Shown here in pieces: positions 8,051-61,942 of a stretch of DNA of 64,000 bases (position 1 is the stretch's first letter; every line of letters begins with the position of its first letter). The notes beneath the pieces are model-generated. The model was given only the letters and a program-made list of their open reading frames with translations, ran no database searches and had not been told where the DNA came from. The stretch is taken from assembly GCA_000165345.1 (NCBI GenBank), contig CM000429.1:704001-768000 (forward strand), written 5' to 3'. Position numbers and translations under genes: made by a program.

Positions 8051-9675
8051 TTTGCGATATTCAATCAGTCACTTTTATTATCTTTTCTTTCTTAGTTTAT
8101 ACAATCTTAACTTAATTAAAGCAATAATTTTATTATAATTATTATTATATTTAGGATTATGATTGAAAACTAAATATTGTGGGCTTTTTAAGTAAATAGA
8201 TATATAAAATTAAATAAAAAAAGAAGGAAATGGATCTTTCTTGATTCGATTTTGATTTATATAATCAATCAATAAGCCGAGTTACTTATTTGTAAAAATA
8301 AATTCACATATATTTCTTTTTATTTCCTTTTTTCTTTTTTATTCCTCTTTTTATTTTATCCCTTTATAATAATAATCTACATAATATATACATGGAAAAT
8401 ATTATGTATGCCTGCTTGCCCGCCAAAAATTTTGAAACACGTGGAGATTAAATGACTAAATAAAAAAAGAAAAATAAATAAATTTATTCTAATAATATGG
8501 AAAATTTTCTTACATAAAGTTGTATGAAAGAACATCGTTATTTTATTTTATTTTTCCTAATCTTATTAAAAACATAAAAAATCTGAATATTTCTAAATTA
8601 TACTGCATTCCAAATAAAATGTAATTAGTTATTATCTTTAATTATATCTTGAAAATAAAAGGAAATTATTTGGGAAAGAAAAAAAATAATTAGCTAACAG
8701 TTTAATATCTATTTTTTTAAAAGTATTATTAATAATTAAAATTTTATTTGTACAAATCATCATTACCGGTATTGTTTGAAAAAAAATGCTTGCATTTTCG
8801 CATGCATGCACAATTTTTTACTAAAATCATTTATCCACATAAAATTTTATGTGGACAAAAATTTTAAAAAAATTAAAATTAAGAATAGAAACGAATAAAT
8901 GGTTTATAATGTTTAATTTTGGTATTGAATATTATCTCGTAAATGTATACAAAAAAGAAGAAAAAAAGAATAAGTAGTAGTAAGAAGAAGGATTGTTTGA
9001 TTATTGGTAATTTAATTTTATTTATAGAAAGTAAGTGTATTCAAGAACTCAAGTGAATATATTACAAATACTAAATATTTATTAGCGTAATAAATATTGA
9101 AAAAAATTAATTATTTAAAGTATTTGATTAATAAATATTAATAAGATATATGCGTAATTTGAAAGATTTAGGAGCAAATAGAATATTACAAGTGTGGGGC
9201 GGCCTGTATGTGTGTCATGTCGTAAAATAAATATTTGGGTTATATAAAAATATAAATATATATTTTATATTTATATTATATTGTACTTAAAAAAAAAAAA
9301 TATATTAATGAATAAAGTTTTTCAAAGAAAGGAGAACACAAAACTTGGCTAAATTATAAAATCGAAACTTTTAATAATAATAATATTATTATTATATGCA
9401 TAAATATATATAAAAGGTATAAACAAGATATTGCAAAGAAGAGAATTAATTAAATAGAGAATATAGTGGTGGTTAGTAATAAATATATAATGAAAAATAT
9501 TTGATCCAGAATCTAAAAATTAATAAAATATTCTCTCAGTTAAAATTAGGAGAAAATAAATAAAATAGTTTTAAGGTAAATAAAGAGAATGCAAATTAAC
9601 AAATAATATTTGAAATAATATATAGTTTAAGGAAAAATTATATATTTGAGAATAATAATAATATATTTGAAAAAA

Positions 9676-12476: not shown

Positions 12477-15400
12477 TTAATTGAAAAAGGGGAGTAGTTG
12501 GACAATCTTGCAATTTTGTAGTGTATCAATAATTAAAAGAGTGTTCTTATTGATGAAAATTGCATGGGAAATGATTTTGTTGTATTGATTGGATGTTAAG
12601 CTGTTATTAATAATATTAAGAGGATTTAAAGAAAGGGAATGATTAATATTGAATTTAATAATTGGTACGATTGTAATTTGATTATTATTAAAATATCTTT
12701 TGAAAGATGATTTAAGTAATAGAAATATATGATAAATAATACAAATACCATCAGATGATAATACTGTTAATTTTGAATTAATATAATTCGAATTTCTGTT
12801 AATAATATTATTAAGAGTGTTTAAATTGGATAAATTTGAAGTAAGTATATTCTTTTGTTTAAGTTTAAATAAGCTTGGATTTAAAAATTGTCTTCCAAAT
12901 AAATAAGATATAAACCATAAATTTCCAGTATTTGTAATAATTAAGAGTGTATTAGCTTGTTTCCAATTATGGCTTGTTGAAATTGGTGAACTTTCTAAAG
13001 CTATTAAAAGATCTGGTCGACTAATTATAGGTAAATTATATGATAAATTAGTCCAAATATCCCATATACATAAACAATTTTCATCTGATAATACTGATGA
13101 AATTTCGATCTTACTACTTAAATTCAAAGTATTATCTCCCATAAATTCTGCCAAATTTAATGTACCACTATTAATTAGAGTTCCACCTAATCCAATTCCT
13201 CCTTCACTTTCATTTAAGTAACCATAACTATTACCACCAATTGAATAAGAACTATTGGACTTTGCAGTATTAGGTGTTGATGCATTACTAATCGATTGTG
13301 ATTGAACATTATTGTTATTATTTGTTGTAGTAGTAACACTAATATTACCACCAACAATAGGTATTCTCTCACCTCTTGAATTAAATTTAGTATAGTTTCT
13401 AAAATTGAATGACGACCTTCCAAGTTCATTTCCTTCATTGTTATTAAAACTATTATTATTAATACTAGTAGTGTTATATACGAAATTGATTCCATTACCT
13501 GATGTTAGAATATATCTGCAAGAATAGTCAATAATTCCTGACCAAAAACAATTTGATTTATGTACTTGGAATATATATATTGGAATAAATGGATTCATAG
13601 CAGAACTTGACTTTGAACTTGAATTTGAATTTGAACTTGTGCTTGAACTTGTACTTTGTGCATTAATTGAACTTGAAGTCAAAATAATATTACTGCTGGA
13701 TGATAGTGAAGAATTATTTACACCTCCATTATTGACTGAAGTTGTTTGTAAACTATTATGAGATGAGGAAGGTTGGGAAGGATTAATATTGGGATTAGAA
13801 GGAACAAAAATCTCATCCTCTTCATCAGATAAGTAATTATTGTTGGAGTTGAGTTTATAAACCATAATAAAACCATTCGAAGTTGAGATAATTATATGTA
13901 TTTTACTTGGAGACCAACTTACATGGGTTATATTACCTAAATTATGATTATTTACCATTAATTTATTCAAATTAGTTGAAGTTGTAGGAGGCAATTCTTG
14001 GTGATAATTACGACCTTGGCCAATAGAATCAATACCCTTAAAAGATCTTTTATTAACATTATTTGATGTTAAATTGTAATATGACTTTGATAAACTATTT
14101 GAAATCATTATTGGCTTTGGATTTGATTTACTACTATTAATATTATTAATAATATCTCCAGTAATATTACTACTGGTATTAATAAAATAATTGGGATGAT
14201 TTACTTTATGATAATTACTGAAAGCTAAAGAATGACTCCAATATGGATAAACAATATGAGAAACTCTTGGATTTCTTAATTGTATTGCTTCACCACATAT
14301 TATTGCTTTGACATTATTGAATTGATTTTGTATTTTTGAAAAACTTAACGGAATATCTGTAAATATCTGTAAGAATCGTATTTCTTGAAAATTACAAGTT
14401 AGATGAGATCCTGATCCAATATTTGTATTAAAATCCGATACTCCTCCCCCTATATTTAACTCATTTTCTTTTGATGTATATAAATCGAGATAAATACTTT
14501 TAACTCCTTTCTTTATATTAACACAAAAATCAATATCATATATTGGCATAATACAAGGAGATGATGATGATGATGATAACAATAAGCTTTTATTACTTTT
14601 TCTTCTTTCCAGTTTTCTATATGATAAAAGTCCATGATCATCTTGATTTTCCTCCAATTTCCCAAAAATTAAGAGTCTCTTTAAAAGAAAAGAGTTTAAA
14701 AGAACTTCTAATCTTATGATCTTTTCTGATTTGAAAATGTTATCAAAATCTTCTCCGAATTTACCAAATTTCATTCCCTGAAAAATAACTCCTTCATAAT
14801 AATATGAATTTATATGATTTCTTCTCATAAAACTTATTGGATGAATAAAATATAATTTTGAATTTAACATTAAGTGAGTTTTTTCACCTAATAATAAAAA
14901 TGGACTGTTATTTACATCCATCTTACAATCCATCAATAATGGACTTTCTTGATATAATATATGACCTAATAATGTATTTGATCTTTCTACTCCTTCTTTT
15001 TCACCTTTTTGAATTCTATTCTTATACCATTTATAATAATAATCTTCTTCATTAACATATTCATTTTCATTCTCTAATTCAACTAAAGTTTCAGATTCAT
15101 TCTCATCTTGTTGCTTACTTTGATCAAATCCAAAATAATGATAATAATAAAAATCATCATCTTCATATTGTTTAATCTCATTATCTATTAATATATTATC
15201 ATTCATCATATTCTCCTCTTTTTTACTGTCTCTCTCCAAATCTTCAATATTGTTATTATTACCACTCAAATAGTGAACATTTGGAACTAAATTAAGTTTA
15301 GGAGTTGGAATAATACGATTATTATATATTAACATATTAATCATAAAGAGTGATGGATTATTCATTCTCATTGATTCTTCTTTCTTATTCAATCTGAATC

Positions 15401-18400
15401 TATCATCACTTACTTCAAAGTATTCATTTGAAAAATCTAGTTTCAATTTTTCAAGTTCAAAACCTGAATTTTTATTATTATCATTACTTGTATTTGTTGT
15501 TGTTGAATTTGTACAAGATATACTATTTAATAAATTCACAGAATACTGTTCACTAGATTCTAATTCAATGCTTGAGATATTATTCGAGTTTTCTTTAAAA
15601 TTCCATACCTTCTTCAATAAATAATAATATAAATTACTGATTGATCCAATATCATATGATATTATTAATTCCTTATTTCTTAGTATATTTATTAATAATA
15701 GATTTTTGATTCCCATTCCAATCCAAATTTCTTTTAATATAATAATAATTTTGATTATAATAACATTAATAGTGGGCAGATGATGATTATTAGTATTTAG
15801 TTCAGGATAATTATTAGTATTAACAACTCGAGTAAATAATATACTTTTCTTTTCATCAATAGAATCATAGTAATATGTTAGGATGAGTGGTAATAACGGA
15901 ATAATAATTTCTTTCCATTCTTTAAATACTCTATTATTATAGGACTCTTTTAAAGCAAGATTTAATTGGTCTGTTGTTATCTTGTTTGTAATAGATTCTT
16001 CTTGTAATATAGAATTGAAACTTAACTCGCTATTATTATCTTCATTAATTAATTCTTGATGAATTTTTATTATACTAGTAGATAATACTATTATTATAGT
16101 ATTAAAATACATGAGTTGATCTTCTTTTACATATTGAAATGAATTATTTTGAATTTCTTCTTGGATATTATCATTATTAGAATTACTTTCAATATCTTTA
16201 ATATATCCATATTCTTTAGTAAATTCTAATAATAACCTCAAAAGCTTTAATAACTTGATTCCTAATCTTTTGGTTAATCTTCTTTTTAAATGCAAATCTA
16301 ACTTTTGATAACTTTTTAATATTATAACAAACTTGATTATTTTTATTAAATTTTGATACTTGAGCACATTAATATCTTTAGAACCTTTTATTTTGGATAT
16401 GAGATCCTGTATAATAATCATAAACATATAAATTTTTAATAGCTTGGTTATAATAATTGTTGGATTTTCATTAATAATTTTGGAAGAACCAACTTCTTCT
16501 CCTTCATTTCCAGGCTCTAACAATAATTCAAATAAAATATGATTAACTTTATTCCTAAATATTAAAATTAATAATTCACATTTATTTATAATATATTGAT
16601 CACCATTCCTACTTTCGAAAGTTAATATAATTTCATTATTAATTCTGGAAAAAAACTCAAATAAAGAGTCCCATATATAATCAAATCCAAAATGACCCAA
16701 ATTCCAAGAATTCTTATTTTCTGAAAATATCTCAAAAATTAAATTCAAATATTTACCCCTCAACCCGGAAATATCTTCTGATAGTCTTTTTTTACATGCA
16801 ACATGCATTATGCTAATATCATTTTTAATTACGTCATTTTTTGTGTGCATACCGGTATTGACATTATTAAAATATTTGTCCACATTAGTTAATAATAAAT
16901 AATTAAAAATATTAATAGGATTAATATTAAGATTGTTTTTTTCTTGATTATAGTTGAAATGAAATACGGAAATAAATTCTGGAATTTTGGAATATTGATT
17001 AATCCATTCAAAAAGATTATTGTTGTTTAAGAAGAAGAAGTAATTAATATGTAAATATTTTATATAATTTTGAATTCTATTGAGAATATTTGGCTTAATA
17101 ATTAAATTATAATAATGATAATGAATATTTTTTGTTTTAAAAAAGTCTTGATTATTTTCGATATAAGTTAGCCACGAAATATAATGGTATGGATTCATAC
17201 ATTTTTTGATATAATAAGAAATTATTTCAATTATATTGTCAAATGATGGATATTTTAAGCTTTCACTTAATTCATAAGATTGAGATTGTGAGCTGATTAA
17301 AATTTTTAATTTAATATAATTATTAAATAAGAATAAATGTTCAGGATGTATAAAGCTGTAATTTAAATCATAACTATTTTGATCATTTAAATAAGAATCT
17401 TCAATATATTTATTATTTGGAATGATTTCTTCAATCTTTATATTACTTTTAAAATAATCTTCTATACTACACATTAATTCACAAACTTTAAAGAAAATTG
17501 TTGGACATGATAATTTTAACAAAATATTAAGTATATCCACTCTATTAATATTATCAAATTTGAAATTATTTACACTTGAATAATTTAATATTGATATTAT
17601 GCTTAACCACGGGTCTTTATTTATTAATGATAATAACCATAAATTACTCAAATACTTATTGTAAAGATTCACCAAAGTATTCTTCTCATTATCATTTATT
17701 CCATTCGAGTTTAATAACAATTTTAATAAAAGAAATAATAGTTGTGGATCATTCAAATACTTTATACATATGTTTGCTATTTCGTCATAAGATCTACTTA
17801 ATATAAAGAAACACAAACTCCAATGGTACTTTCTTTGTTTTATCAAGTAATAACCATTATTAATTGCTTGTTTCTTTAATTCATCATTATTTATATTATA
17901 ATTTAATAAAAAATCAAATACATTCTTTTGATCTAAAATCTTAAATATTGCAGAAACTATATTTAATTTATTAATGCATGTGTATATTATCAAAACAATA
18001 TTTAACATTTCATCTTGGAAAATATTACTATTTTTTTTCTGATTATCTGGAAATTCAAAGCTTAATTCTTTTCTCCTTTCAGAAATTACTTTTATCAGGT
18101 TTTGATATAATTTTTGAACCCATTTTTCAATAAATTCCTGAAATTTAAAATTTTCTGTTAATATATAAATCACTCCAAACTTTTTCAAATCTTTCCAGTC
18201 GATTAAATTACTATTAAAATTCCCAAGAATTTTATCAACTATATGGTCCTTTTCGCAAAGTGAAATCCAACAAATATCTTCAGATTTTAATATGAATCCA
18301 CCTTCTCCTAACATATCATAGTAATTTATTCTTATAAAATATCTCTTTATTTGGTATTCTTCGAATTCCGTAATATTCATTCTATGGCCATATGTTTTAT

Positions 18401-21400
18401 TTTTTCTTAGCTCTATTAAAGAATCGTAAAGTTTTTGATATTCTCCTAAATTTTCCAAAGATTTATAATCTTGGTTATCATAATATCCATCCAAATAATC
18501 ATCAAGATTGTAAGGCACAATATTAAGATTTGGTGAATCTTGAATATCCTCTATAATCTTATCAAAAATTTGTTTGGAAAATGATTGCTTTCTATCATTT
18601 AATGAAAAAACAAAATCTTCCAATACTTTAATTTGTTTAAGTGAAAAATTATTTCCTTTCTCATATATATTATTTTCAGGTCTTTTATATATTCTTGGAA
18701 TAATTTGGTCATTTGTATTAAAAAATAAATAAAGTCCATCAAAAATTTCCAATCTTTGTATTCTAATTAACTCACCAGTATTACTCATCTGGAAATGTTC
18801 ATACAAATCTATCTCGTTATTGGTTTCCCATCTACATACGTCCTTGTTCCAGTAAATTGACCCAATAATTTTTCCATGGTTAACTATGAAACAAAAATAA
18901 GTCATTTCAAAGTCTTGAAGAATTACTAGTTGATTATTCTTGTATTTATTATATGAAGTTAAATCATCGTCGCTTTCATTATTTTTTTCAAAAGAGATTT
19001 CCTTTGAAAAATTAATATTTTTTGATTTATACAAACTATAATCATCAATAATTGAAATCTCTTGAAAAGGATTTAAAGAAATGGTTTCTTCTCCTTCAAT
19101 ATTAAGCAGATTTAATGATAATAAAGAATAACAAAGCAATATTCCATTCCTATTATTATAAATTAATAAGTTATAATCCAATGTTTTTATTAATAATGAA
19201 TCTTTTGTGAAATCAAAGAATGATCTGTTCAACTTGATTTTTGAAGTTATTTCAACCTTATTATGGATATCACTTATATTACAAATATATATATAAAGTT
19301 GTCCCATTTCATTAATTTTATTATTATTAATCATTTCTTGGCCATTTTCTTTATCATATATAAAAATATTGGTTGTTACAAATATTAATGATTTTTCAGT
19401 ACTTGGTTGTTTTATTAATAAAAAACATCCATTAAAATTTATATTGGATAAACTTTGATACATATATGTTGATATTAACCTTAATTCTAATTGAATTCCA
19501 GATTTATTATAACTTTTTTCAATTTGGCTTAATAATAGAGATTCTTGATTTTTTATATTAATCTCAAACATTATTATGTGGTTAACTTCAAAAACTAAAT
19601 CTTTAACCAAACATACGCAAATACAATATCCACCAATTACTGAAGAATGTTTATCTAAGAATACGATTTCATATTTATTATCCATAAATTCATTAAAAAA
19701 TAATTTTTCCAGAATTTGTTCATGATTAATAAATAAATCACTATTATCGTTTTCTAAGCTCCCAATATTATCCCCAGAAATTATTCCTTGACTATTAATA
19801 TCAACTTGTAATAATTCTAAAGTTGAAGAACCATTTTCACAAATACTCGTTAGTCCAAATATTCTCAATTGGCTTGAATTATTTAATTGTACTAATAAAA
19901 TCTGATAATAACTGGAAGTTATTCCTTCTGATATATTAACTATTTTTTCAATATTCAAATCATTTAAATCATAAATATCATTATTATCAAATTCTATACC
20001 GTTGTCCACATTAATATTTAATGTGTGCATGTTTGAAAAAATGCATGCAAAATTATTATTTGCATGTATAAATGTAAATAATTTTTTGGGATTAAGATTA
20101 TCTAAAAGAAGGATATGTCCATTATTGAGTAAAATAAGAATTTCATTGATATTAGTAAGCTCTACAGCAAATTTTCCATAAATATTATTAGTATTTTTGA
20201 GATTTGATTGAATTTTTGGAGTAATTCTTATTAATTTTGAAAAATGCCAAATACCAGTTTTGTCATTAAAAATATATTCAGAAATGCTTGAATCTTTTAA
20301 TTGAAATATAAAATTATAATTATTTCCATTTGAATGGTTTGAAAGTTTATCATTCTTCCAAAATATCATAATATTTGACACGTCACTAGGTAAAATATTA
20401 TTTCTATTAGAAATAAAATTCATTTGTGAGTTGTTTATGAAATTCTTATTATCAATATTATTAAATTGGCAGATTTCCCATTTACATATTGATGAATTAA
20501 TTTCATCATTCCAAATGTCTAATTGAAATACATTAAAGCAAAAAACTTCTTTGCCAATGGAAATTATTAACTTTACTTGCTTATTTTGTTCCTCATTCAT
20601 TGTAAAAATATCACAATTATGTATGCAAGAATTTAAAGGAATTGAAGATTTGGAAATCTCATCATATTCTGAATTTAAATTATAATAAAAATAATCATCA
20701 TTGTCATCTTCAACAAGAGGAAATCTATTTGTTGAATAATAATAAGAAGGATCTTCAACTTCAACATTATAATCATTAATAGATTTATCTAATGCTTCCA
20801 TTGAATTAAAATGATGAATTACATTATCTCTATAACTTTCCCAAATTATATTAATATCCTCATTTCTAACGAATGGTCTATTATTAAATCTTAAATATAA
20901 AGTTTGAATAAATTGACATGGTTTATTTAAAGATGATTCTCTCCAAATTCTAATAATTATTTCTTCATTATTTCTTGAAATTATACAAAAAGAAGATAAT
21001 TCTGAAATTCCTCCAAGTTTCTTTAATTTATATGGTATTTTTGATGACCAAGGCTTCCATGAAACATTTATAATCTTTTCTTCTTGTTTTAAAGAAATCT
21101 TTTGAAATTGAAATTGGTTTGGAAATACACCTGAAATACGAGTATTACTACCAATTGTATATAAATTCATCTCTTCTTCATTCTTTGAATATTCATATCT
21201 CCATATAAATAATTCATTATCTAAATGTTGATATACTAGAATAAATCTTTCACTATTATCAAAAGCTAATTGTAAATCTATTCTTGGACCTGCAAAGCTT
21301 AATTCTTGTTCTAATAATGGTTTCGAATCTACACCTGTTAATATTTCTATATATAAATTTTCCAAATCATTTAAAAATGTATTTGATTCCTTTTCAAGTC

Positions 21401-22031
21401 TTCTTCTATATATTATTTCTTTATAAATATCAATATTAAAAATCTCAAATTGTAATTTCCAAACTGTTAAAAAAGTTCCACGATTACTTGAAGAATGTTG
21501 TATTACTAATTTATTATGATCAATCCAACTTATACTCTTCAATTTTCCATCATTATTATTAACTTTTGATAAATCTATCTTAATAAAAAGTCTTAATTTT
21601 ATATTTTTATATCTTTGACTCCATAATATATTTAATCTTCTTCTATGATTTTCTCCTAAAATATCAGTAACTCCAAAACCTTGAATTTCTTTCAAATTTT
21701 CTTTACAAAATTTATTAATATTATTATAATATTCTTCATAATTTATATCAAAATTTGGAGCAATTATTCCTTCATCTAGTAATTCAATATATCTTAAATC
21801 ATCATCAAGAGTCCAAACTTCAAAACTATTTTCAAAACCAATCACTAAAACAAGTAAATCTTCATGCCAACACAAATAAGTTGGTACTACTTCTTCAAGT
21901 GTATCTATTATTTGAATAGTTTTTCCTTGATCAATATTAATTATAGCAACTTTTGGCAGTATACTCTTTTCATCCACTAACACACACAATGGCCACCTAT
22001 TATGAACTGCTCTATTACCGTTGCTATGCAT
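12477..22031 (-). CDS. giant hypothetical protein (3184 aa), WD-repeat-like segments at both ends, N/S-rich linkers
   Basis: Uninterrupted 9.5-kb ORF. WD-like blocks, e.g. GNITHVSWSPSKIHIIISTSNGFIMVYKL and CLCIWDIW. No BEACH, kinase, AAA or chorein motif seen. Family unassigned (a DmX-like/Rav1 architecture was considered but the N-terminus does not match). Confidence 0.65.
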   Translation of the reverse strand: MHSNGNRAVHNRWPLCVLVDEKSILPKVAIINIDQGKTIQIIDTLEEVVPTYLCWHEDLLVLVIGFENSFEVWTLDDDLRYIELLDEGIIAPNFDINYEEYYNNINKFCKENLKEIQGFGVTDILGENHRRRLNILWSQRYKNIKLRLFIKIDLSKVNNNDGKLKSISWIDHNKLVIQHSSSNRGTFLTVWKLQFEIFNIDIYKEIIYRRRLEKESNTFLNDLENLYIEILTGVDSKPLLEQELSFAGPRIDLQLAFDNSERFILVYQHLDNELFIWRYEYSKNEEEMNLYTIGSNTRISGVFPNQFQFQKISLKQEEKIINVSWKPWSSKIPYKLKKLGGISELSSFCIISRNNEEIIIRIWRESSLNKPCQFIQTLYLRFNNRPFVRNEDINIIWESYRDNVIHHFNSMEALDKSINDYNVEVEDPSYYYSTNRFPLVEDDNDDYFYYNLNSEYDEISKSSIPLNSCIHNCDIFTMNEEQNKQVKLIISIGKEVFCFNVFQLDIWNDEINSSICKWEICQFNNIDNKNFINNSQMNFISNRNNILPSDVSNIMIFWKNDKLSNHSNGNNYNFIFQLKDSSISEYIFNDKTGIWHFSKLIRITPKIQSNLKNTNNIYGKFAVELTNINEILILLNNGHILLLDNLNPKKLFTFIHANNNFACIFSNMHTLNINVDNGIEFDNNDIYDLNDLNIEKIVNISEGITSSYYQILLVQLNNSSQLRIFGLTSICENGSSTLELLQVDINSQGIISGDNIGSLENDNSDLFINHEQILEKLFFNEFMDNKYEIVFLDKHSSVIGGYCICVCLVKDLVFEVNHIIMFEINIKNQESLLLSQIEKSYNKSGIQLELRLISTYMYQSLSNINFNGCFLLIKQPSTEKSLIFVTTNIFIYDKENGQEMINNNKINEMGQLYIYICNISDIHNKVEITSKIKLNRSFFDFTKDSLLIKTLDYNLLIYNNRNGILLCYSLLSLNLLNIEGEETISLNPFQEISIIDDYSLYKSKNINFSKEISFEKNNESDDDLTSYNKYKNNQLVILQDFEMTYFCFIVNHGKIIGSIYWNKDVCRWETNNEIDLYEHFQMSNTGELIRIQRLEIFDGLYLFFNTNDQIIPRIYKRPENNIYEKGNNFSLKQIKVLEDFVFSLNDRKQSFSKQIFDKIIEDIQDSPNLNIVPYNLDDYLDGYYDNQDYKSLENLGEYQKLYDSLIELRKNKTYGHRMNITEFEEYQIKRYFIRINYYDMLGEGGFILKSEDICWISLCEKDHIVDKILGNFNSNLIDWKDLKKFGVIYILTENFKFQEFIEKWVQKLYQNLIKVISERRKELSFEFPDNQKKNSNIFQDEMLNIVLIIYTCINKLNIVSAIFKILDQKNVFDFLLNYNINNDELKKQAINNGYYLIKQRKYHWSLCFFILSRSYDEIANICIKYLNDPQLLFLLLKLLLNSNGINDNEKNTLVNLYNKYLSNLWLLSLINKDPWLSIISILNYSSVNNFKFDNINRVDILNILLKLSCPTIFFKVCELMCSIEDYFKSNIKIEEIIPNNKYIEDSYLNDQNSYDLNYSFIHPEHLFLFNNYIKLKILISSQSQSYELSESLKYPSFDNIIEIISYYIKKCMNPYHYISWLTYIENNQDFFKTKNIHYHYYNLIIKPNILNRIQNYIKYLHINYFFFLNNNNLFEWINQYSKIPEFISVFHFNYNQEKNNLNINPINIFNYLLLTNVDKYFNNVNTGMHTKNDVIKNDISIMHVACKKRLSEDISGLRGKYLNLIFEIFSENKNSWNLGHFGFDYIWDSLFEFFSRINNEIILTFESRNGDQYIINKCELLILIFRNKVNHILFELLLEPGNEGEEVGSSKIINENPTIIITKLLKIYMFMIIIQDLISKIKGSKDINVLKYQNLIKIIKFVIILKSYQKLDLHLKRRLTKRLGIKLLKLLRLLLEFTKEYGYIKDIESNSNNDNIQEEIQNNSFQYVKEDQLMYFNTIIIVLSTSIIKIHQELINEDNNSELSFNSILQEESITNKITTDQLNLALKESYNNRVFKEWKEIIIPLLPLILTYYYDSIDEKKSILFTRVVNTNNYPELNTNNHHLPTINVIIIKIIIILKEIWIGMGIKNLLLINILRNKELIISYDIGSISNLYYYLLKKVWNFKENSNNISSIELESSEQYSVNLLNSISCTNSTTTNTSNDNNKNSGFELEKLKLDFSNEYFEVSDDRFRLNKKEESMRMNNPSLFMINMLIYNNRIIPTPKLNLVPNVHYLSGNNNNIEDLERDSKKEENMMNDNILIDNEIKQYEDDDFYYYHYFGFDQSKQQDENESETLVELENENEYVNEEDYYYKWYKNRIQKGEKEGVERSNTLLGHILYQESPLLMDCKMDVNNSPFLLLGEKTHLMLNSKLYFIHPISFMRRNHINSYYYEGVIFQGMKFGKFGEDFDNIFKSEKIIRLEVLLNSFLLKRLLIFGKLEENQDDHGLLSYRKLERRKSNKSLLLSSSSSSPCIMPIYDIDFCVNIKKGVKSIYLDLYTSKENELNIGGGVSDFNTNIGSGSHLTCNFQEIRFLQIFTDIPLSFSKIQNQFNNVKAIICGEAIQLRNPRVSHIVYPYWSHSLAFSNYHKVNHPNYFINTSSNITGDIINNINSSKSNPKPIMISNSLSKSYYNLTSNNVNKRSFKGIDSIGQGRNYHQELPPTTSTNLNKLMVNNHNLGNITHVSWSPSKIHIIISTSNGFIMVYKLNSNNNYLSDEEDEIFVPSNPNINPSQPSSSHNSLQTTSVNNGGVNNSSLSSSSNIILTSSSINAQSTSSSTSSNSNSSSKSSSAMNPFIPIYIFQVHKSNCFWSGIIDYSCRYILTSGNGINFVYNTTSINNNSFNNNEGNELGRSSFNFRNYTKFNSRGERIPIVGGNISVTTTTNNNNNVQSQSISNASTPNTAKSNSSYSIGGNSYGYLNESEGGIGLGGTLINSGTLNLAEFMGDNTLNLSSKIEISSVLSDENCLCIWDIWTNLSYNLPIISRPDLLIALESSPISTSHNWKQANTLLIITNTGNLWFISYLFGRQFLNPSLFKLKQKNILTSNLSNLNTLNNIINRNSNYINSKLTVLSSDGICIIYHIFLLLKSSFKRYFNNNQITIVPIIKFNINHSLSLNPLNIINNSLTSNQYNKIISHAIFINKNTLLIIDTLQNCKIVQLLPFFN

Positions 22032-35270: not shown

Positions 35271-35451
35271 TTTATTAATTCATGCACTCAACTAACTTTA
35301 ATCGCATGCAGATTAGTTTTTGCATGCTAACCCAGTTTTTTTTGTCAAAATTTTTTACACGTAATTTACACGTAATTAATTTAATATTATTTCTTGAATT
35401 ACTTTTTAAATAAAAAGGGGGTAGCGCGGGAAATTGGGAAAGAAAAAAAGA

Positions 35452-38936: not shown

Positions 38937-39763
38937 TTTTTCTTGAATAAAAGGTTACTCTTTTCCTTTTCTTCTACACCATTGATACCACTCTCAGTAA
39001 TATATTATAACTAATTCAGTCACTCACCCATTTCTTCTTTTTTGCTGTAGAAGAAGAAAGTTCAATTAACATTCATTTATTCACCTCAATATTTCTTTAT
39101 TCTCCATTAAATGGTAACTTCAATATTTAGGCGGCAACTGTTGTGCATGCACCACATGCAAATTACTCAATAATGTGGGGCGGGCACAATAAATAATAAA
39201 GGAAGTGCCATATTAGTTTGTGTAAATTTGTTGTGGTTTATTTTCACCAATGATAACAAATTCGGAACATAAAGTTACAAAAAGAATATCGTACATCGTT
39301 AATTAAAAGTAATTTAGTGATTATAAATCATTAAAATTTTGAATATGAAATTGGTTAGTAACAACTATAAGTAATTCGTTTTCTTATCATTTTATATTGT
39401 TACCATTTATATTCTTTTTTTATTGGACTTTTCAAGATTCCAGATATGTTTGAAATTATTGTTTTGAATTAATTTCGTGCATATCTATGTTTTTTTCTTT
39501 ACTAAATGGTCTTGTTAAAAATCACTATCTCTGATTCAATTTTTTCTTTTTTTCCCTGAATTATTGAAGATTATAGTTTACTAGAAACTAATATTATTTT
39601 TTGCCATAAAAATATTTAAAAAATATATATAGATATATTACATTACCGGTAAAAAAAAAAAAAAAAAAAAAAATTTAACCCCAAAAAACTTAAAATTCTC
39701 AAAAAAAAAAAATAAATACAAAAGAAAGGAATTGTAAAATTGATTAAAGTATTAAGGTTAAAA

Positions 39764-40332: not shown

Positions 40333-40657
40333 ATTATTCTTTTAGCTATTATTAATTCCTATTTAAATATTATAATTATTTTTTTTTCCATCACTTATTT
40401 AAAAAAATAAAATAATTAAAACAATTACGTGTTTGACTAAATTATTATTATTATTATTTTTGCATGTGGTCAACTTTTGTACCGGTATTTACATGCATTA
40501 TTGAAAATAACTTTATGTGGACAAATTAATGCAAGAATTAAATTAAATTTTAGGAATGATATAGATTGAATTATTAAAAAATAATAAATTGGAACATGCA
40601 AAATAAAATTAATATTAAAATTGAACAAGTAAATAATTAATTAATTAATTTAATACA

Positions 40658-45392: not shown

Positions 45393-46615
45393 ATAAATTA
45401 ATTAATGCAGAAGCTATTCACGACAATCGCTTGATCAATTGTAGTATTAATATAATCCAAAATATTCATTCAATTATCCAATATTAATAATTAGAAACTT
45501 AATTAATCATTTATTTATTTACAAAATTGATCAATTCATGTATTGTTTGTAATGATATTAAAATTAAATGATTCTTTAATTACATATAAAAGATTAAATA
45601 TTTCATTATATTTAAATCGTATGTGATCAATTTACTAATAAATATTTATTAGTAAAAAATCAAGTTCATATACAGAAAACTATATTAAATTCAACAAATT
45701 TCCATGTTAAAGATCTTTAAGTAATATTAATAATTTTTTTTGTATTATTCAAGAGCAAATATTATTTTTTTTATTTTTTTTTATTTTTTTTTATTATTAT
45801 TTTACTATTATTATTAATAATAATATTATTATTTATTACTATAATAATATCAATATTATTATCTCCTCATACTTTTCTTGTGTTAATGCTACCTTGATTT
45901 GCCCTTTATTCTGCCCCCATCCTAACTTTAACCTCTGTAGATTATGCTAATAAATCACGGCGGAGACTAGACGTGGCGCAAAGGACTCTTTGCGTTGGGT
46001 AAATTTGTGGGGCAACGCAGATTCTATGTGGATGTCAAAAGTGACGTGTTTGGTTCTGAACCGGTATAGGGATTTGATTAATTGCATGTACAACTATGTG
46101 GACAATTTTTTTAAAAAAATGCATGTGAATATGCATGCATAGATGCGAAAAATAATAATAACAAACAAAGTGGATTTCTCAGTAATTATTGAGAAAAAGA
46201 ACTACAAAGATAAGTTGGAAATAAGAGAATAAAAAAAGGGAATAATAACAATAATAATTAATTGTAAAAACTTGGGATAATGTTAATATCAGAGACGAGT
46301 GCAACAAGCACAATGAAATATCAACAAAGATCCGATAATTGTATTTAATATAGGCATGACTTAGCACCATAAGATCAGTGAACTCTCAAATTGTTTTTTT
46401 ATTCAAGAAGTTATCAATTACAGTGACTCTGTATGCCAAAAAATTAAATGAATTCAAATTAATATTTATGAGAATAAATTTGTATTCATTGAAAAGGGAG
46501 AAAATAAAATTTGAAAATGGAGTTGACTTTTTTTTAAAAATAACGAAGTTACATTTTAATGGGTAATAAGTATTAATATATACATTAAAGAAATGAAAAA
46601 TTATAATTTTTACTA

Positions 46616-57868: not shown

Positions 57869-58072
57869 TTTCATTTTTTTTTTTTAACTAATGCTTAAAG
57901 CATGCATGCATTACAAATTGCATGCAATTTGTAATAGTTGACACGTAACAATTGTTTTGTGAATATAATTAATAGAATTTTTTCTTTTTTTTTTAATTTT
58001 AAAAAATCAAATATAAAATATGCGATATAATACAGAATAAATATGGATAATCAATTATTATGAAATTTGGAA

Positions 58073-59184: not shown

Positions 59185-59756
59185 TTTCAAATTTAATTGT
59201 TTTTTAATTTATTTTGGGTGATTTGCATGCAATCTTCTTTATTTTTTTCCCTTTATATATTATTATGCAAAAATTAATATCATTAAATTAAATTGGTATC
59301 TACTATAACATATTATGTACAATTCTTTTTTCTTTTCAAAGATAAATCTTTAAAAATACGAATAAATTATCCAATATAATTATTTAATTTTACGCCTTTT
59401 ATAACAATAATAATAATAATAATATCTCCAATTTTTCTTTTAATATATCTAAATTATCCCCTCACGCCAAAAAAAAAACATATTTATATATAAATATATA
59501 TTCTGACCAAAGAATAATTCAACCTTAACATTGAAATCCAAAATTAAATTTATAAATGAATACAATGATCACACAATAATTCAACATAATTTATGGCAAT
59601 AAAGTAATAATTAAAATAATTATTAAATTTTTGGACTTTAATATATTTTTATTTTCCCTCTTATTGTATTATAAATAATATTACTAGTAAAAACTATTTC
59701 AATAAAGTGTTTTATATTATTAAAAAAAAAAAAAAAGAAACTACTATAATAACAAA

Positions 59757-60422
59757 ATGCAATCATATAAAATCAATGAATTTGGCAATGAAATTCATAA
59801 CAACAAGATAAATTTCGAGCCTTCTGGATTATTAGCTAAGGAATCAAACTCTCTAAATGGAGTATTTCTAAAGGTATGTTTTTAAATAAGTTTAAGAAAA
59901 CTTTATTAAAAAAAAAAGTATTCAAAACCTTCAGATTCATGCAATTCACATAAAAAATGGAAACTTTATGTATTTAAATATAATTATCCACATGATGTGG
60001 GGAAAAATGACAATACCGGTATTGTGCATGTAAATAATGACAGTTCATGTGGACAACACGTATATAATGAAACAATACCATTATATAATAATGAATATTA
60101 TTTAATAGGTAATTTTTGATGAAAATTTCAGTTAATTAATTAATTATCTTTTTTCTTTGATAAATAAGGTAAGGATGCAAGAGTAGTTAATATAAACTTA
60201 AAAGAAGACTCGATAGAAGATCAACATGCAGTAATACAACATAGAGTTAATAAGAAAGGTATTCCAACAATATATATAATAGATTTAGATAGCAAGTATG
60301 GTACATTTATTAATGATGAGAGAATAGAGTCAAGAAGATATTATGAGTTAATTGAGAAAGATTCGATCCGATTTGGTGAATGTAAAAATGAATATATTTT
60401 ATTGCATGATGGAATGATATGA
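59757..60422 (+). CDS. snip1: SNIP1/Pml1-like FHA-domain protein (3 exons: 59757..59873, 59919..60108, 60169..60422)
   Basis: Exon 1 INFEPSGLLAKESNSLNGVFLK matches SNIP1 PNFELSGALLEDTNTFRGVVIK. Exon 2 YSKPSDSCNSHKKWKLYVFK...ETIPLYNNEYYLIG matches YSEPPEARIPKKRWRLYPFKNDEVLPVMYIHRQSAYLLG. Exon 3 GKDARVVNINLKEDSIEDQHAVIQHRV..IYIIDLDSKYGTFINDERIESRRYYELIEKDSIRFG..EYILLHD matches the FHA core. Donors GTATGT at 59874 and GTAATT at 60109; acceptors end at 59918 and 60168. Confidence 0.7.
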
Positions 60423-60571
60423 TGCAAGTAATAATATAATATATATAAGAATTGATAAATTTAAAATTAAATGAAAAGCTAATAAAAATATCAAGCAATT
60501 TGAGATTGATTTTCCGCATGAAAACTTTGTTCTAAGTATTCTCATCTCATACAGCATAATTAATTATTAAA

Positions 60572-61942
60572 CTACTCATTATTACTATTATTATTAACAT
60601 TATTATTATTGGTATTATTATTATTATTGCTATTATTAGCAAGAATAGAAGAAAGAGAAGTAAGATGTCCCATCCATTGATTAAGTTTTTTATCCAAAGA
60701 TTCCCATTCAGCTTTACCAAATTGTCTCTTTGTAACGCAATTAATATTAACAGTATTGGAATTCTCTGAGATATTTCCATCAATAAGTCCAACACTTATT
60801 GCATTAACTACAGCATCTTGAGTATCAAATGATGATAGTCTGAATTCTTTTTCAAGTTCATCTAACTTAATAGATGATTTACCTTTTGCCAATGTTGAAA
60901 TAGTTAATAATTGAAGTTTATTAACAATATTACTTTCATTAGCCTTTAAAATTGGTAATTTATCAAGAAAGTTCTGATATTCTTGGTTATTATTTTGAAG
61001 TTTATCATGGAAATCTCCAACTGTGCCTTGATAACATATATCAAATAATTCCAATAAGACTTTATACTCTTTTGAGTAATTTTCCTTAATATATTGGTAA
61101 ATTGGCATTGATAGTAATGAATCAAAGAATAATATTTCTGGTAAAAGAATGGTTGAAATAAGAAACTGTACTCCTAAATCAAGTATGCGGCTATTTGATT
61201 TTATTGATTGAGAAATCTCATCTTTTGATTTAAAAGTTTCAAAGAATCCAACTAAATAATCATAAGCTTTCTTATTCAAATAATTCTTATTATCTTTTGA
61301 TTCTGATGATATAATATCATACATACCCAAATACAAATTTCTCTTCAGTTCAGATTTTGATTCATCAATATTTGTAATCTTCTTTTCTAACATATCTAAT
61401 GAAGATTCCATTGTTTCAAAGTTATTAAAACAACCATATTGTGCCTTATATTTTAATATATTTACTAGAAGTTCAAGATCTTGACCAAAAATATCATAAT
61501 AAACCTGTAATACATTAATTCTCAATTTTGGAATTTCACCTTTACTCATTAATTTTTCAAGGAAAATCTTCTTACATGTATCAATTCTTGATTTATCAAA
61601 CTTTGGATGAAGAAGCATTGAAATTAATGGTATAAAGAATTCCTCTGATTCTTTATATAACTCTCCAAAACTTCGTTTAACATCATCACGTATTACTATT
61701 TCTTTCTTTACCTCAGCATCCTTCAAAATCTCAAATATTCCATCCAAATTTTCAACAAGTAATTCAAATACAGATGCCATATCTACTTCAGATATATCAT
61801 CTCTAACCAATTTACAAACTTTTTCATAAAATGAATTCGATTTTTTCTTATCTAAGTAATCTAAAATTGTGAATAGCCAGTCACACAAAAGGATTGAAGT
61901 TGAACGTCCATTTCCATTTGAAGTAAATACTAGCTGCATCAT
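60572..61942 (-). CDS. eif3m: eukaryotic translation initiation factor 3 subunit M (eIF3m), PCI-domain protein
   Basis: C-terminal PCI/winged helix NKLQLLTISTLAKGKSSIKLDELEKEFRLSSFDTQDAVVNAISVGLIDGNI..VTKRQFGKAEWESLDKKLNQW matches human EIF3M MAKMRLLTFMGMA..EISFDTMQQELQIGADDVEAFVIDAVRTKMV..RTFGKQQWQQLYDTLNAW. Poly-N tail. Confidence 0.7.
   Translation of the reverse strand: MMQLVFTSNGNGRSTSILLCDWLFTILDYLDKKKSNSFYEKVCKLVRDDISEVDMASVFELLVENLDGIFEILKDAEVKKEIVIRDDVKRSFGELYKESEEFFIPLISMLLHPKFDKSRIDTCKKIFLEKLMSKGEIPKLRINVLQVYYDIFGQDLELLVNILKYKAQYGCFNNFETMESSLDMLEKKITNIDESKSELKRNLYLGMYDIISSESKDNKNYLNKKAYDYLVGFFETFKSKDEISQSIKSNSRILDLGVQFLISTILLPEILFFDSLLSMPIYQYIKENYSKEYKVLLELFDICYQGTVGDFHDKLQNNNQEYQNFLDKLPILKANESNIVNKLQLLTISTLAKGKSSIKLDELEKEFRLSSFDTQDAVVNAISVGLIDGNISENSNTVNINCVTKRQFGKAEWESLDKKLNQWMGHLTSLSSILANNSNNNNNTNNNNVNNNSNNE

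Follow-up and report, generated by a model that had tools for sequence, protein, structure and literature searches.

Exon 2 of a SNIP1-like gene on chromosome 1 of Cryptosporidium parvum, which encodes a protein with an FHA domain and lies at positions 59757–60422 of the stretch that we analyzed, carries a dense group of short DNA motifs, here called cluster L (59984–60080, about 100 bases), in frame with the coding sequence. The stretch comprises 64,000 nucleotides of the forward strand (NCBI GenBank assembly GCA_000165345.1, contig CM000429.1, positions 704,001–768,000) and is referred to as the window; its own numbering is used for all coordinates. We consider it probable that cluster L is a clade-specific module with two uses, which encodes protein sequence and is also read on the DNA as a cis-regulatory element.

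Composition of the motif cluster

By motif scan and alignment, the cluster begins at 59984–59993 with TTATCCACAT, an inverted copy of ATGTGGAYAA that reads ATGTGGATAA on the minus strand. It continues with the palindromic ATACCGGTAT at 60013–60022, which is invariant in the four species compared below, and then on the plus strand with TGCATGTA at 60025–60032, an AP2_1-like motif of the TGCATGYR type whose GCATGTA portion is also invariant, and with ATGTGGACAA at 60047–60056, the reverse complement of a motif known from promoters of long noncoding RNAs (lncRNAs), Motif5 (TTGTCCACATK). The last component on the plus strand (60056–60068), recovered by k-mer scan and alignment, consists of ACACGTAT, a site of an ACGT-core class at 60056–60063, overlapping TATATAAT at 60061–60068, which by its sequence may be a TATA-like run. 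The motifs listed in an initial annotation of this DNA are all present, and ACACGTAT and TATATAAT are added to them here. That annotation had also singled out a 13-bp palindrome, CCACATGATGTGG. The palindrome does exist at 59988–60000, but it is not the conserved unit, because only its left arm (TTRTCCACAT) is kept in C. ubiquitum and C. canis and the right arm is not. The end that had been given for the element, 60057, also requires revision, as the conserved nucleotide block described below reaches 60080.

Viewed as a module, cluster L would combine four types of short binding site: TTRTCCACAT/ATGTGGACAA, the palindrome ATACCGGTAT, the AP2-type TGCATGYR, and the ACGT-core site together with the TATA-like run. 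These components are strongly over-represented in the window, whose base composition is 25% GC. There are 11 occurrences of ACCGGTAT at 8 loci, compared to 0.16 expected, and ATGTGGACAA has 7 exact occurrences, or 13 when one mismatch is allowed (3.9 expected). At five of the eight ACCGGTAT loci, an ATGTGGAYAA lies no more than 100 bp away (binomial p = 1.5e-6). An unbiased scan of the window placed TACCGGTA (10 observed versus 0.41 expected), TGCATGCA (15 versus 0.6), TGTGGACA (8 versus 0.7), and ACGTGTCA (5 versus 0.15) among the most over-represented 8-mers, at 11 to 33 times expectation, with TGCATGCA ranking second among the 8-mer classes by enrichment. Matches to ACCGGT, ACGTGT, and GCATGC fall outside of ORFs in 64 to 82% of instances, although such DNA makes up 31% of the window. 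At least three of the four motif classes occur within 90 bp at only five sites of the window, which are designated clusters A, B, H, I, and L, and all four classes are found within this distance only at H, I, and L. A scan for bacterial-type promoters and terminators yielded no enrichment and is uninformative for a eukaryote.

Nucleotide conservation of the cluster

Sequences of the gene from four species (C. parvum, C. hominis, C. ubiquitum, and C. canis) were aligned. In a block spanning 60012–60080, the C. parvum sequence is 98.6, 97.1, and 95.7% identical to those of C. hominis, C. ubiquitum, and C. canis, respectively, whereas C. parvum and C. canis elsewhere share 73.5% identity in exon 1, 69.7% in exon 3, and 50 to 56% in the introns. 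Identity to C. parvum in exon 3 ranges from 70 to 87% when C. canis and C. ubiquitum are both considered. Across the four species the block remains at 96 to 99% identity and in frame, in contrast to the true introns of the gene, which show 50 to 70% identity with insertions and deletions. The longest invariant run of the whole gene, 35 nucleotides at 60046–60080, also resides in this block.

Synonymous sites in the block are nearly frozen. When only codons with a conserved and degenerate amino acid were counted, 19 codons in the block were identical and 1 had a synonymous change, compared to 48 and 60 in the remaining coding sequence (Fisher p = 1.5e-5). The substitutions that do occur in the block sit only between motif cores and are mostly nonsynonymous. 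Thus, the two bases between ACCGGTATT and GCATG (60024 and T60025) vary to give V, L, A, or M, and base 60045, which precedes CATGTGGACAA, varies to give S or T. Upstream of the block, a Tyr-to-Cys change in C. canis converts TTATCCACAT to TTGTCCACAT, which is the exact reverse complement of ATGTGGACAA. The peptide NTGI.HV..DS.CGQHVYNETIP is kept in all four species.

Because of this substitution pattern, the alignment appears to show a constraint that acts on the DNA and not on the peptide, and that tracks motif boundaries rather than codon positions. This is the signature that would be left by purifying selection on the motif cores independent of coding constraint. The initial annotation had raised the prospect that orthologs carry the same residues as conserved protein sequence. 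C. ubiquitum and C. canis do carry them, but the pattern of substitutions places the constraint on the DNA, and more distant Cryptosporidium species have neither the residues nor the motifs.

Sister clusters in the window

Two other clusters share the arrangement found in cluster L. Cluster H (40427–40524, plus strand) is intergenic and follows the same grammar; 134 bp separate its end from the downstream ATG of a gene for a 172-residue protein. It is kept motif by motif in the orthologous intergenic region of C. canis, where the surrounding intergenic DNA can barely be aligned. Cluster I (46026–46139, plus strand) is likewise intergenic, and the published lncRNA Cp_lnc_62(+) starts inside it. 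Clusters H, I, and L have in common the order ACCGGTAT, CATG-core site (GCATG or its reverse complement), and ATGTGGACAA, with the outer motifs 32 to 36 nucleotides apart, and in both H and L an ATGTGG lies upstream of ACCGGTAT. Read as a grammar (ATGTGG, 17 to 20 nucleotides, ACCGGTAT, CATG-core site, ATGTGGACAA), this arrangement would mark intergenic promoter regions elsewhere in the window. Cluster A (8765–8858, plus strand) resides in the divergent intergenic region of an EF-hand gene and a kinase gene.

Clusters B (16795–16885) and C (20002–20068), both on the minus strand, are embedded in frame within the gene for a 3184-residue Rav1-like protein, CPHLJ_1g3240 (ORF 12477–22031, minus strand, 9.5 kb), which we compared with a single ortholog at 53% amino acid identity. 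The ATGTGGACAA of cluster B forms the end of the best conserved 20-codon window among the 3184 codons (91.7% nucleotide identity versus a mean of 59%). Within the clusters of this gene the cores ATGTGGACAAATAT, AATACCGG, GCACACAAAAAATGACGTAATT, and ATGCATGTTGCATG are invariant, and the spacers diverge with insertions and deletions. In the ortholog, cluster C consists of ATGTGGACAAC, 9 nucleotides, and ATACCGGTAT, and a 12-nucleotide deletion in C. parvum fuses ATGTGGACAAC to GGTAT. Given clusters B and C, composite clusters that are embedded in coding sequence, and that by their divergence pattern appear to be under DNA-level selection, are a recurrent phenomenon rather than a single case. Clusters F and G, which are isolated ACCGGTA sites, are not conserved in C. 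canis, which makes a lone motif less telling than the composite.

Related motifs also occur in other arrangements. Clusters of TGCATGCA and ACGTGT at 35281–35368 (between cyclin and RING genes) and at 57900–57941 (between a gene for a 655-residue protein and the F-actin cap gene) lie in short convergent 3′–3′ intergenic regions with no protein-gene promoter nearby, and the former has a counterpart in C. canis (19622–19660 of the homologous locus, L011). These clusters may be antisense promoters or 3′-end elements. The most over-represented 8-mers of the window are CCGGTACC and AGGTACCG (6 observed versus 0.15 expected), which are present at the ACCGGT sites 26688 and 42451 within coding sequence (GTACCGGTACCTG) and may be related to a further motif of the lncRNA study cited below, 'Motif4' (CCCATACCAGGTGGA).

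Links to transcription and to published motifs

Sister sites are associated with transcript starts. The start of Cp_lnc_62(+), at 46037 in cluster I, gives rise to a transcript that runs antisense across Vps4, and Cp_lnc_76(−), which is antisense to a HAD hydrolase gene, starts at 39592, 53 nucleotides downstream of TTACCGGTAA. Both RNAs are on the list of 48-h-enriched lncRNAs provided by the authors who published them. Just downstream of the 172-residue gene that is preceded by cluster H, a third lncRNA, Cp_lnc_61(+), runs antisense to FtsH from 41321 to about 42773. We also considered Cp_lnc_375, which is described as 'antisense to CPATCC_0000460', as an lncRNA of the FHA gene. This candidate was rejected: its sequence is absent from the window, and the CryptoDB and GenBank locus numbers differ.

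Several of the motifs have precedents. TTGTCCACATK is 'Motif5', one of five motifs reported from the 100 bp that precede C. parvum lncRNAs (Li et al. 2021, PMC7840661, Supplementary Table S3). In its ATGTGGACAA orientation, Motif5 is usually found 25 to 45 nucleotides upstream of lncRNAs, often together with GCATG motifs, as exemplified by Cp_lnc_69, which has sites at −72, −51, and −33. The AP2_1 motif, TGCATGCA, is bound as DNA by AP2 domains in vitro (PMC3734150, PMC4117751), and TGCATGYR is enriched in macrogamont-specific promoters and is bound in vitro by the AP2 protein cgd2_3490 (PMC11078545). An unnamed motif, A[T/A]G[T/A]GGA.A, which ATGTGGACAA fits, accompanies AP2_1-like motifs upstream of class II COWP (oocyst-wall protein) genes (Oberstaller 2013, PMC3734150). 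A published assay for transposase-accessible chromatin with sequencing in sporozoites revealed E2F motifs and no AP2 motifs, and the Cryptosporidium motif families given in a 2025 review are only E2F, AP2_1, AP2_2, G-box, GAGA, and CAAT. Neither ATACCGGTAT nor the ACGT-core motif appears in the published Cryptosporidium motif lists that we examined, and a full-text literature search for GTCCACAT or TACCGGTA with Cryptosporidium retrieved no relevant paper. Literature on Myb-M and single-cell work yielded reviews only.

The host gene and its variable loop

Only one stop-free gene model keeps the SNIP1-like flanks of the element. It has three exons on the plus strand and a product of 186 residues. 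In this splice model, exon 1 spans 59757–59873; exon 2, which hosts the element, spans 59919–60108 and encodes KKWKLYVFK, a loop of 31 residues, and then TIPLYNNEYYLIG; and exon 3 (60169–60422) supplies the stop codon and the rest of the FHA domain, as judged by its profile match. The product is identical to C. parvum IOWA-ATCC QOY43276.1 (CPATCC_000046) and is 98% identical to a C. hominis FHA protein. Versions with 186 residues are also annotated in C. meleagridis, in C. tyzzeri, and in one C. hominis assembly. The placement of the element in frame within exon 2 of a SNIP1-like FHA gene, as first proposed, therefore holds in both sequence and coordinates. The proposed dictyostelid host does not, because the best protein matches are to Cryptosporidium (98 to 100% identity), and the set of species suggested for comparison was misdirected.

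With the 186-residue model, the Pfam FHA profile (PF00498) is matched at 58 bits (cut-off 20.7) over positions 1–67 of 67. Exon 2 encodes the first strand of the domain and supplies profile positions 1–8; without this exon, the match begins at position 9. Human SNIP1 and the apicomplexan SNIP1-like FHA proteins are alike in that the FHA domain follows a segment, NFEPSGLL...KY.xP...W.LY.F, that is common to SNIP1 homologs and the 186-residue protein, although the C. parvum protein is much shorter than human SNIP1 at the N-terminus. In an alignment of 14 homologs, residues S23, G24, L26, K39, Y40, P43, and L55 are invariant, and F20, W53, Y56, and F58 are nearly so. The neighbors of the gene are a divergent F-actin capping beta gene and a convergent eIF3m (PCI-domain) gene (60572–61942) whose 3′ end is 150 bp away. 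About 290 bp upstream of the FHA ATG, at 59460–59475, there is an E2F-like site, CCTCACGCCAAAAAAA (reverse complement TTTTTGGCGTGAGG), that agrees with TTSSCGCCWAA at 9 of 11 positions. Judging from its sequence, it may be the ordinary promoter of the FHA gene, separate from the internal module.

The cluster coincides with a loop, between W.LY.F and TIPLY at the first FHA strand, whose length varies in a graded manner. It comprises about 6 to 10 residues in human SNIP1 and in fungal and other homologs, 12 in C. andersoni, 19 in C. bovis and C. ryanae, and 31 in C. parvum and C. hominis. The 12 residues that are extra relative to C. bovis and C. ryanae (HDVGKNDNTGIV) bear the ACCGGTAT part of the cluster, and the CGQHVYNE part, encoded over ATGTGGACAACACGTATATAATGAA, aligns to RGRHAYHS and MNTHTYYS in C. 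bovis and C. ryanae. The claim of an insertion is consequently correct relative to human SNIP1 and most homologs, but the graded series and the counterparts of CGQHVYNE do not agree with one clean insertion of 28 codons. An AlphaFold model (mean predicted local distance difference test score of 81) depicts residues 62–84 as a low-confidence loop between strands at 53–61 and 85–93. On the basis of this model, the loop could be a tolerant host site for DNA motifs, and in its enlarged form it is probably exposed on the surface.

A direct repeat in exon 2, AATGACAATACC at 60006–60017 and AATGAAACAATACC at 60066–60079, is read in different frames and hints that the loop may have expanded in part by local duplication. 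Exon 2 of C. ryanae, C. bovis, and C. andersoni has no match to any of the motifs. In the entire 3.7-kb FHA loci of these species there are only one to three matches to the four motif classes, and the FHA loci of C. hominis, C. ubiquitum, and C. canis have seven to eight. Thus, the motif vocabulary of the intestinal clade may differ from that of more distant Cryptosporidium species.

Alternative explanations

Several observations weigh against a module that is read on the DNA. Sister clusters H and I and the Cp_lnc_76 site lie near transcript starts or an ATG, but no such start is evident at cluster L: six probes gave no match between 59300–61700, on either strand, and the portion of the published lncRNA sequences that was covered. 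This result is softened by the fact that a short-read assembly would merge a sense-overlapping RNA with the FHA mRNA. As assembled, Cp_lnc_62 begins upstream of most of cluster I, so the motifs may act downstream of the start site, and the geometry of the promoter is uncertain. Because the element is carried by four species only, there are few independent substitutions. Clusters like H, I, and L arose in 0 of 200 Markov-3 simulations, but this test is partly circular because the motif classes were picked from the same window; the binomial and cross-species tests are not circular. Finally, the clusters embedded in coding sequence (L, B, and C) are all in the sense orientation relative to their host genes, which fits an RNA-level element as well.

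Such an RNA-level element is the main rival, although we consider it unlikely. In that case, RNA-binding proteins would recognize the motifs in the FHA mRNA and in the 5′ portions of other sense transcripts, or the motifs would act there as a local hairpin, and they would control exon 2 splicing, mRNA stability, or translation. Consistent with this, cluster I lies within the first ~70 nucleotides of Cp_lnc_62, competing annotations skip exon 2, and TTATCCACATGA (59984) can pair with TCATGTGGACAA (60045) to form a stem that is present in the minimum free energy structure and that is improved by the left-arm A-to-G change in C. canis. However, a hairpin cannot be general, given that H and I have direct rather than inverted ATGTGG copies. 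The predicted fold is not significantly stable (−25 kcal/mol, z = −1.5 versus shuffled controls), and an Rfam search of 59400–60700 gave no match at E ≤ 1. Moreover, ATACCGGTAT and TGCATGCA are perfect DNA palindromes, which are typical of dimeric binders of double-stranded DNA, the latter is a DNA ligand of AP2 domains as noted above, and ATGTGGAYAA is found on both strands at intergenic sites. A splicing role would not extend to the clusters of the Rav1-like gene, which are far from introns.

The three remaining readings each appear unlikely. The first of these, which is improbable, is that exon 2 or the element is not in the mature mRNA and that the cluster is an intronic regulatory element. 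Annotations with 121 residues (C. parvum P0002, C. hominis P0022, C. ubiquitum P0004, and C. canis P0008) do splice exon 1 to an acceptor at 60174, straight to DARVV, such that the intron (59874–60173) swallows all of exon 2 and the FHA domain is truncated. This would have to be the correct model or a major isoform. We conclude instead that it is most probably incorrect, or represents no more than a minor isoform, because exon 2 is open and homologous in all Cryptosporidium, Theileria, and Babesia orthologs and in SNIP1, because the exon outside the conserved block has coding-type substitutions, many of them synonymous, and because the exon supplies the first eight FHA profile positions. The curated IOWA-ATCC annotation and those of C. 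meleagridis, C. tyzzeri, and one C. hominis assembly also have the longer product. Other annotated lengths of the product are 195, 159, and 105 residues. An intron confined to exon 2 was considered and rejected, because no internal GT..AG pair excises the element while sparing the frame and the conserved flanks: 9 of the 12 pairs break the frame, and 3 cause in-frame deletion of TIPLY..YYLIG. The earlier statement that no intron fits is upheld by this analysis, but not the count of a single GT..AG pair.

It is highly improbable that the conservation reflects only protein constraint in combination with biased codon use, gene conversion at the locus, or a micro-ORF that overlaps on the antisense strand. 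The loop peptide is kept in the four species, and an antisense ORF of 35 residues overlies 59974–60081 in C. parvum. Yet the synonymous sites are frozen relative to the more conserved FHA parts of the protein, amino acid changes are tolerated exactly in the spacers, and the same signature is present at two more coding sites and one intergenic site. As a source of constraint the antisense ORF was rejected, because it has two stops in C. canis and has lost its ATG in C. ubiquitum. We give the least credence to the idea that a mobile element or dispersed repeat entered the loop, was exonised, and became fixed, a sense in which the 'exonised element' of the initial annotation, one of the two possibilities it offered, can be taken. 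An ordered motif set does recur at five or more loci, and the loop is longer in the clade that bears the element. When 59975–60090 was compared to the window by blastn-short, however, the cluster copies were found to share motif cores of only 10 to 17 nucleotides, and in a six-copy alignment ATGTGGACAA alone is invariant. Spacer lengths vary among copies, and no terminal repeats or target duplications were seen. Cryptosporidium is not known to have transposable elements. A repeat family was rejected on these grounds; because cores are shared without extended homology, a 'copy' is best understood as a recurring motif grammar and not as a repeat by descent. The other possibility, a cis-element embedded in coding sequence, is favored by a nucleotide constraint in step with motif boundaries and by the presence of the grammar at intergenic promoter regions and at an lncRNA 5′ end.

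A possible intragenic promoter

If cluster L is a module read on the DNA, it would have originated within the intestinal clade (C. parvum, C. hominis, C. ubiquitum, and C. canis), where selection would fix the motif cores, including their synonymous sites, and would leave the spacers and the residues they encode to drift. The readers would be sequence-specific DNA-binding factors, with AP2 proteins as candidates for TGCATGYR and other factors for the remaining motifs. The module could serve as an intragenic promoter or enhancer late in development, at around 48 h or in sexual stages. Its most likely output would be a plus-strand transcript from roughly 60040–60100, in or just after the cluster, which would traverse the 3′ portion of the FHA gene before continuing antisense into the convergent eIF3m.

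We infer this late-stage, eIF3m-antisense transcript from the parallel with cluster I, which forms the 5′ region of Cp_lnc_62 and resembles cluster L in grammar, orientation, and geometry toward a convergent gene. The two clusters have the four motif classes, their order and orientation, and a convergent minus-strand gene in common. At cluster I, the 3′ end of that gene is about 500 bp downstream, and the transcript is antisense and 48-h enriched. Unlike cluster L, cluster I is intergenic and is only partly conserved in C. canis. A bolder proposal, which we regard as doubtful, is that ACCGGTAT, TGCATGYR, ATGTGGACAA, and ACGT form an undescribed promoter module of late or sexual stages in the intestinal clade that was assembled de novo several times in coding DNA and dictates how long protein loops are and which sequence they have, and that the copy in the FHA gene produces a stage-specific eIF3m-antisense transcript tied to reported translational repression in macrogamonts.

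Relation to known systems

Cryptic or internal promoters are known in yeast and mammals, and transcription-factor binding sites in exons ('duons') were reportedly described by Stergachis and colleagues in 2013. Cluster L is similar to these in that coding DNA carries regulatory sites, which are putative here, and has lower synonymous divergence at these locations. It differs from them in combining several sites under a fixed grammar, in an apicomplexan genome of ~9 Mb, and in a constraint so strong that the motifs rather than the peptide appear to dictate the loop sequence.

Of the individual motifs, TGCATGTA fits the macrogamont TGCATGYR motif and is related to AP2_1 (PMC3734150, PMC4117751, PMC11078545). 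The published examples are upstream of genes, whereas TGCATGTA is in a coding exon and is flanked by the unlisted ATACCGGTAT and ACGT-core sites. Similarly, ATGTGGACAA corresponds to the reverse complement of Motif5 (PMC7840661) and to the motif of Oberstaller (2013), both of which occur with GCATG or AP2_1-like motifs, but Motif5 was presented in a supplementary table and one sentence, without a factor, a grammar, a conservation analysis, or cases embedded in coding sequence. As a general idea, exonic regulatory sites and intragenic promoters are already familiar, and earlier work in C. parvum had noticed two of the four motifs. What is new is the composite grammar, the two unlisted motif classes (ATACCGGTAT and ACGT-core), and the cross-species evidence that suggests function, as well as the embedding in coding exons under apparent selection that fixes synonymous sites and seemingly shapes a protein loop.

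Implications for Cryptosporidium gene regulation

Gene regulation in Cryptosporidium is poorly understood. This locus adds to a known AP2 site a grammar that includes two unlisted motif classes and ATGTGGACAA, and the conservation of that grammar across species, in intergenic DNA and in coding exons, is evidence of function. In a genome as compact as this one, sequence for the control of genes can reside in coding sequence and constrain it. Synonymous recoding by CRISPR (clustered regularly interspaced short palindromic repeats) methods could tell regulatory and coding functions apart and leave the protein untouched. For annotation and for studies of evolution, the case serves as a warning that frozen synonymous sites and lineage-specific loop insertions in a genome that is 75% coding can reflect embedded regulatory DNA. 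If an antisense output over eIF3m is indeed produced, the module would provide a concrete handle on the stage-specific control of a translation factor.

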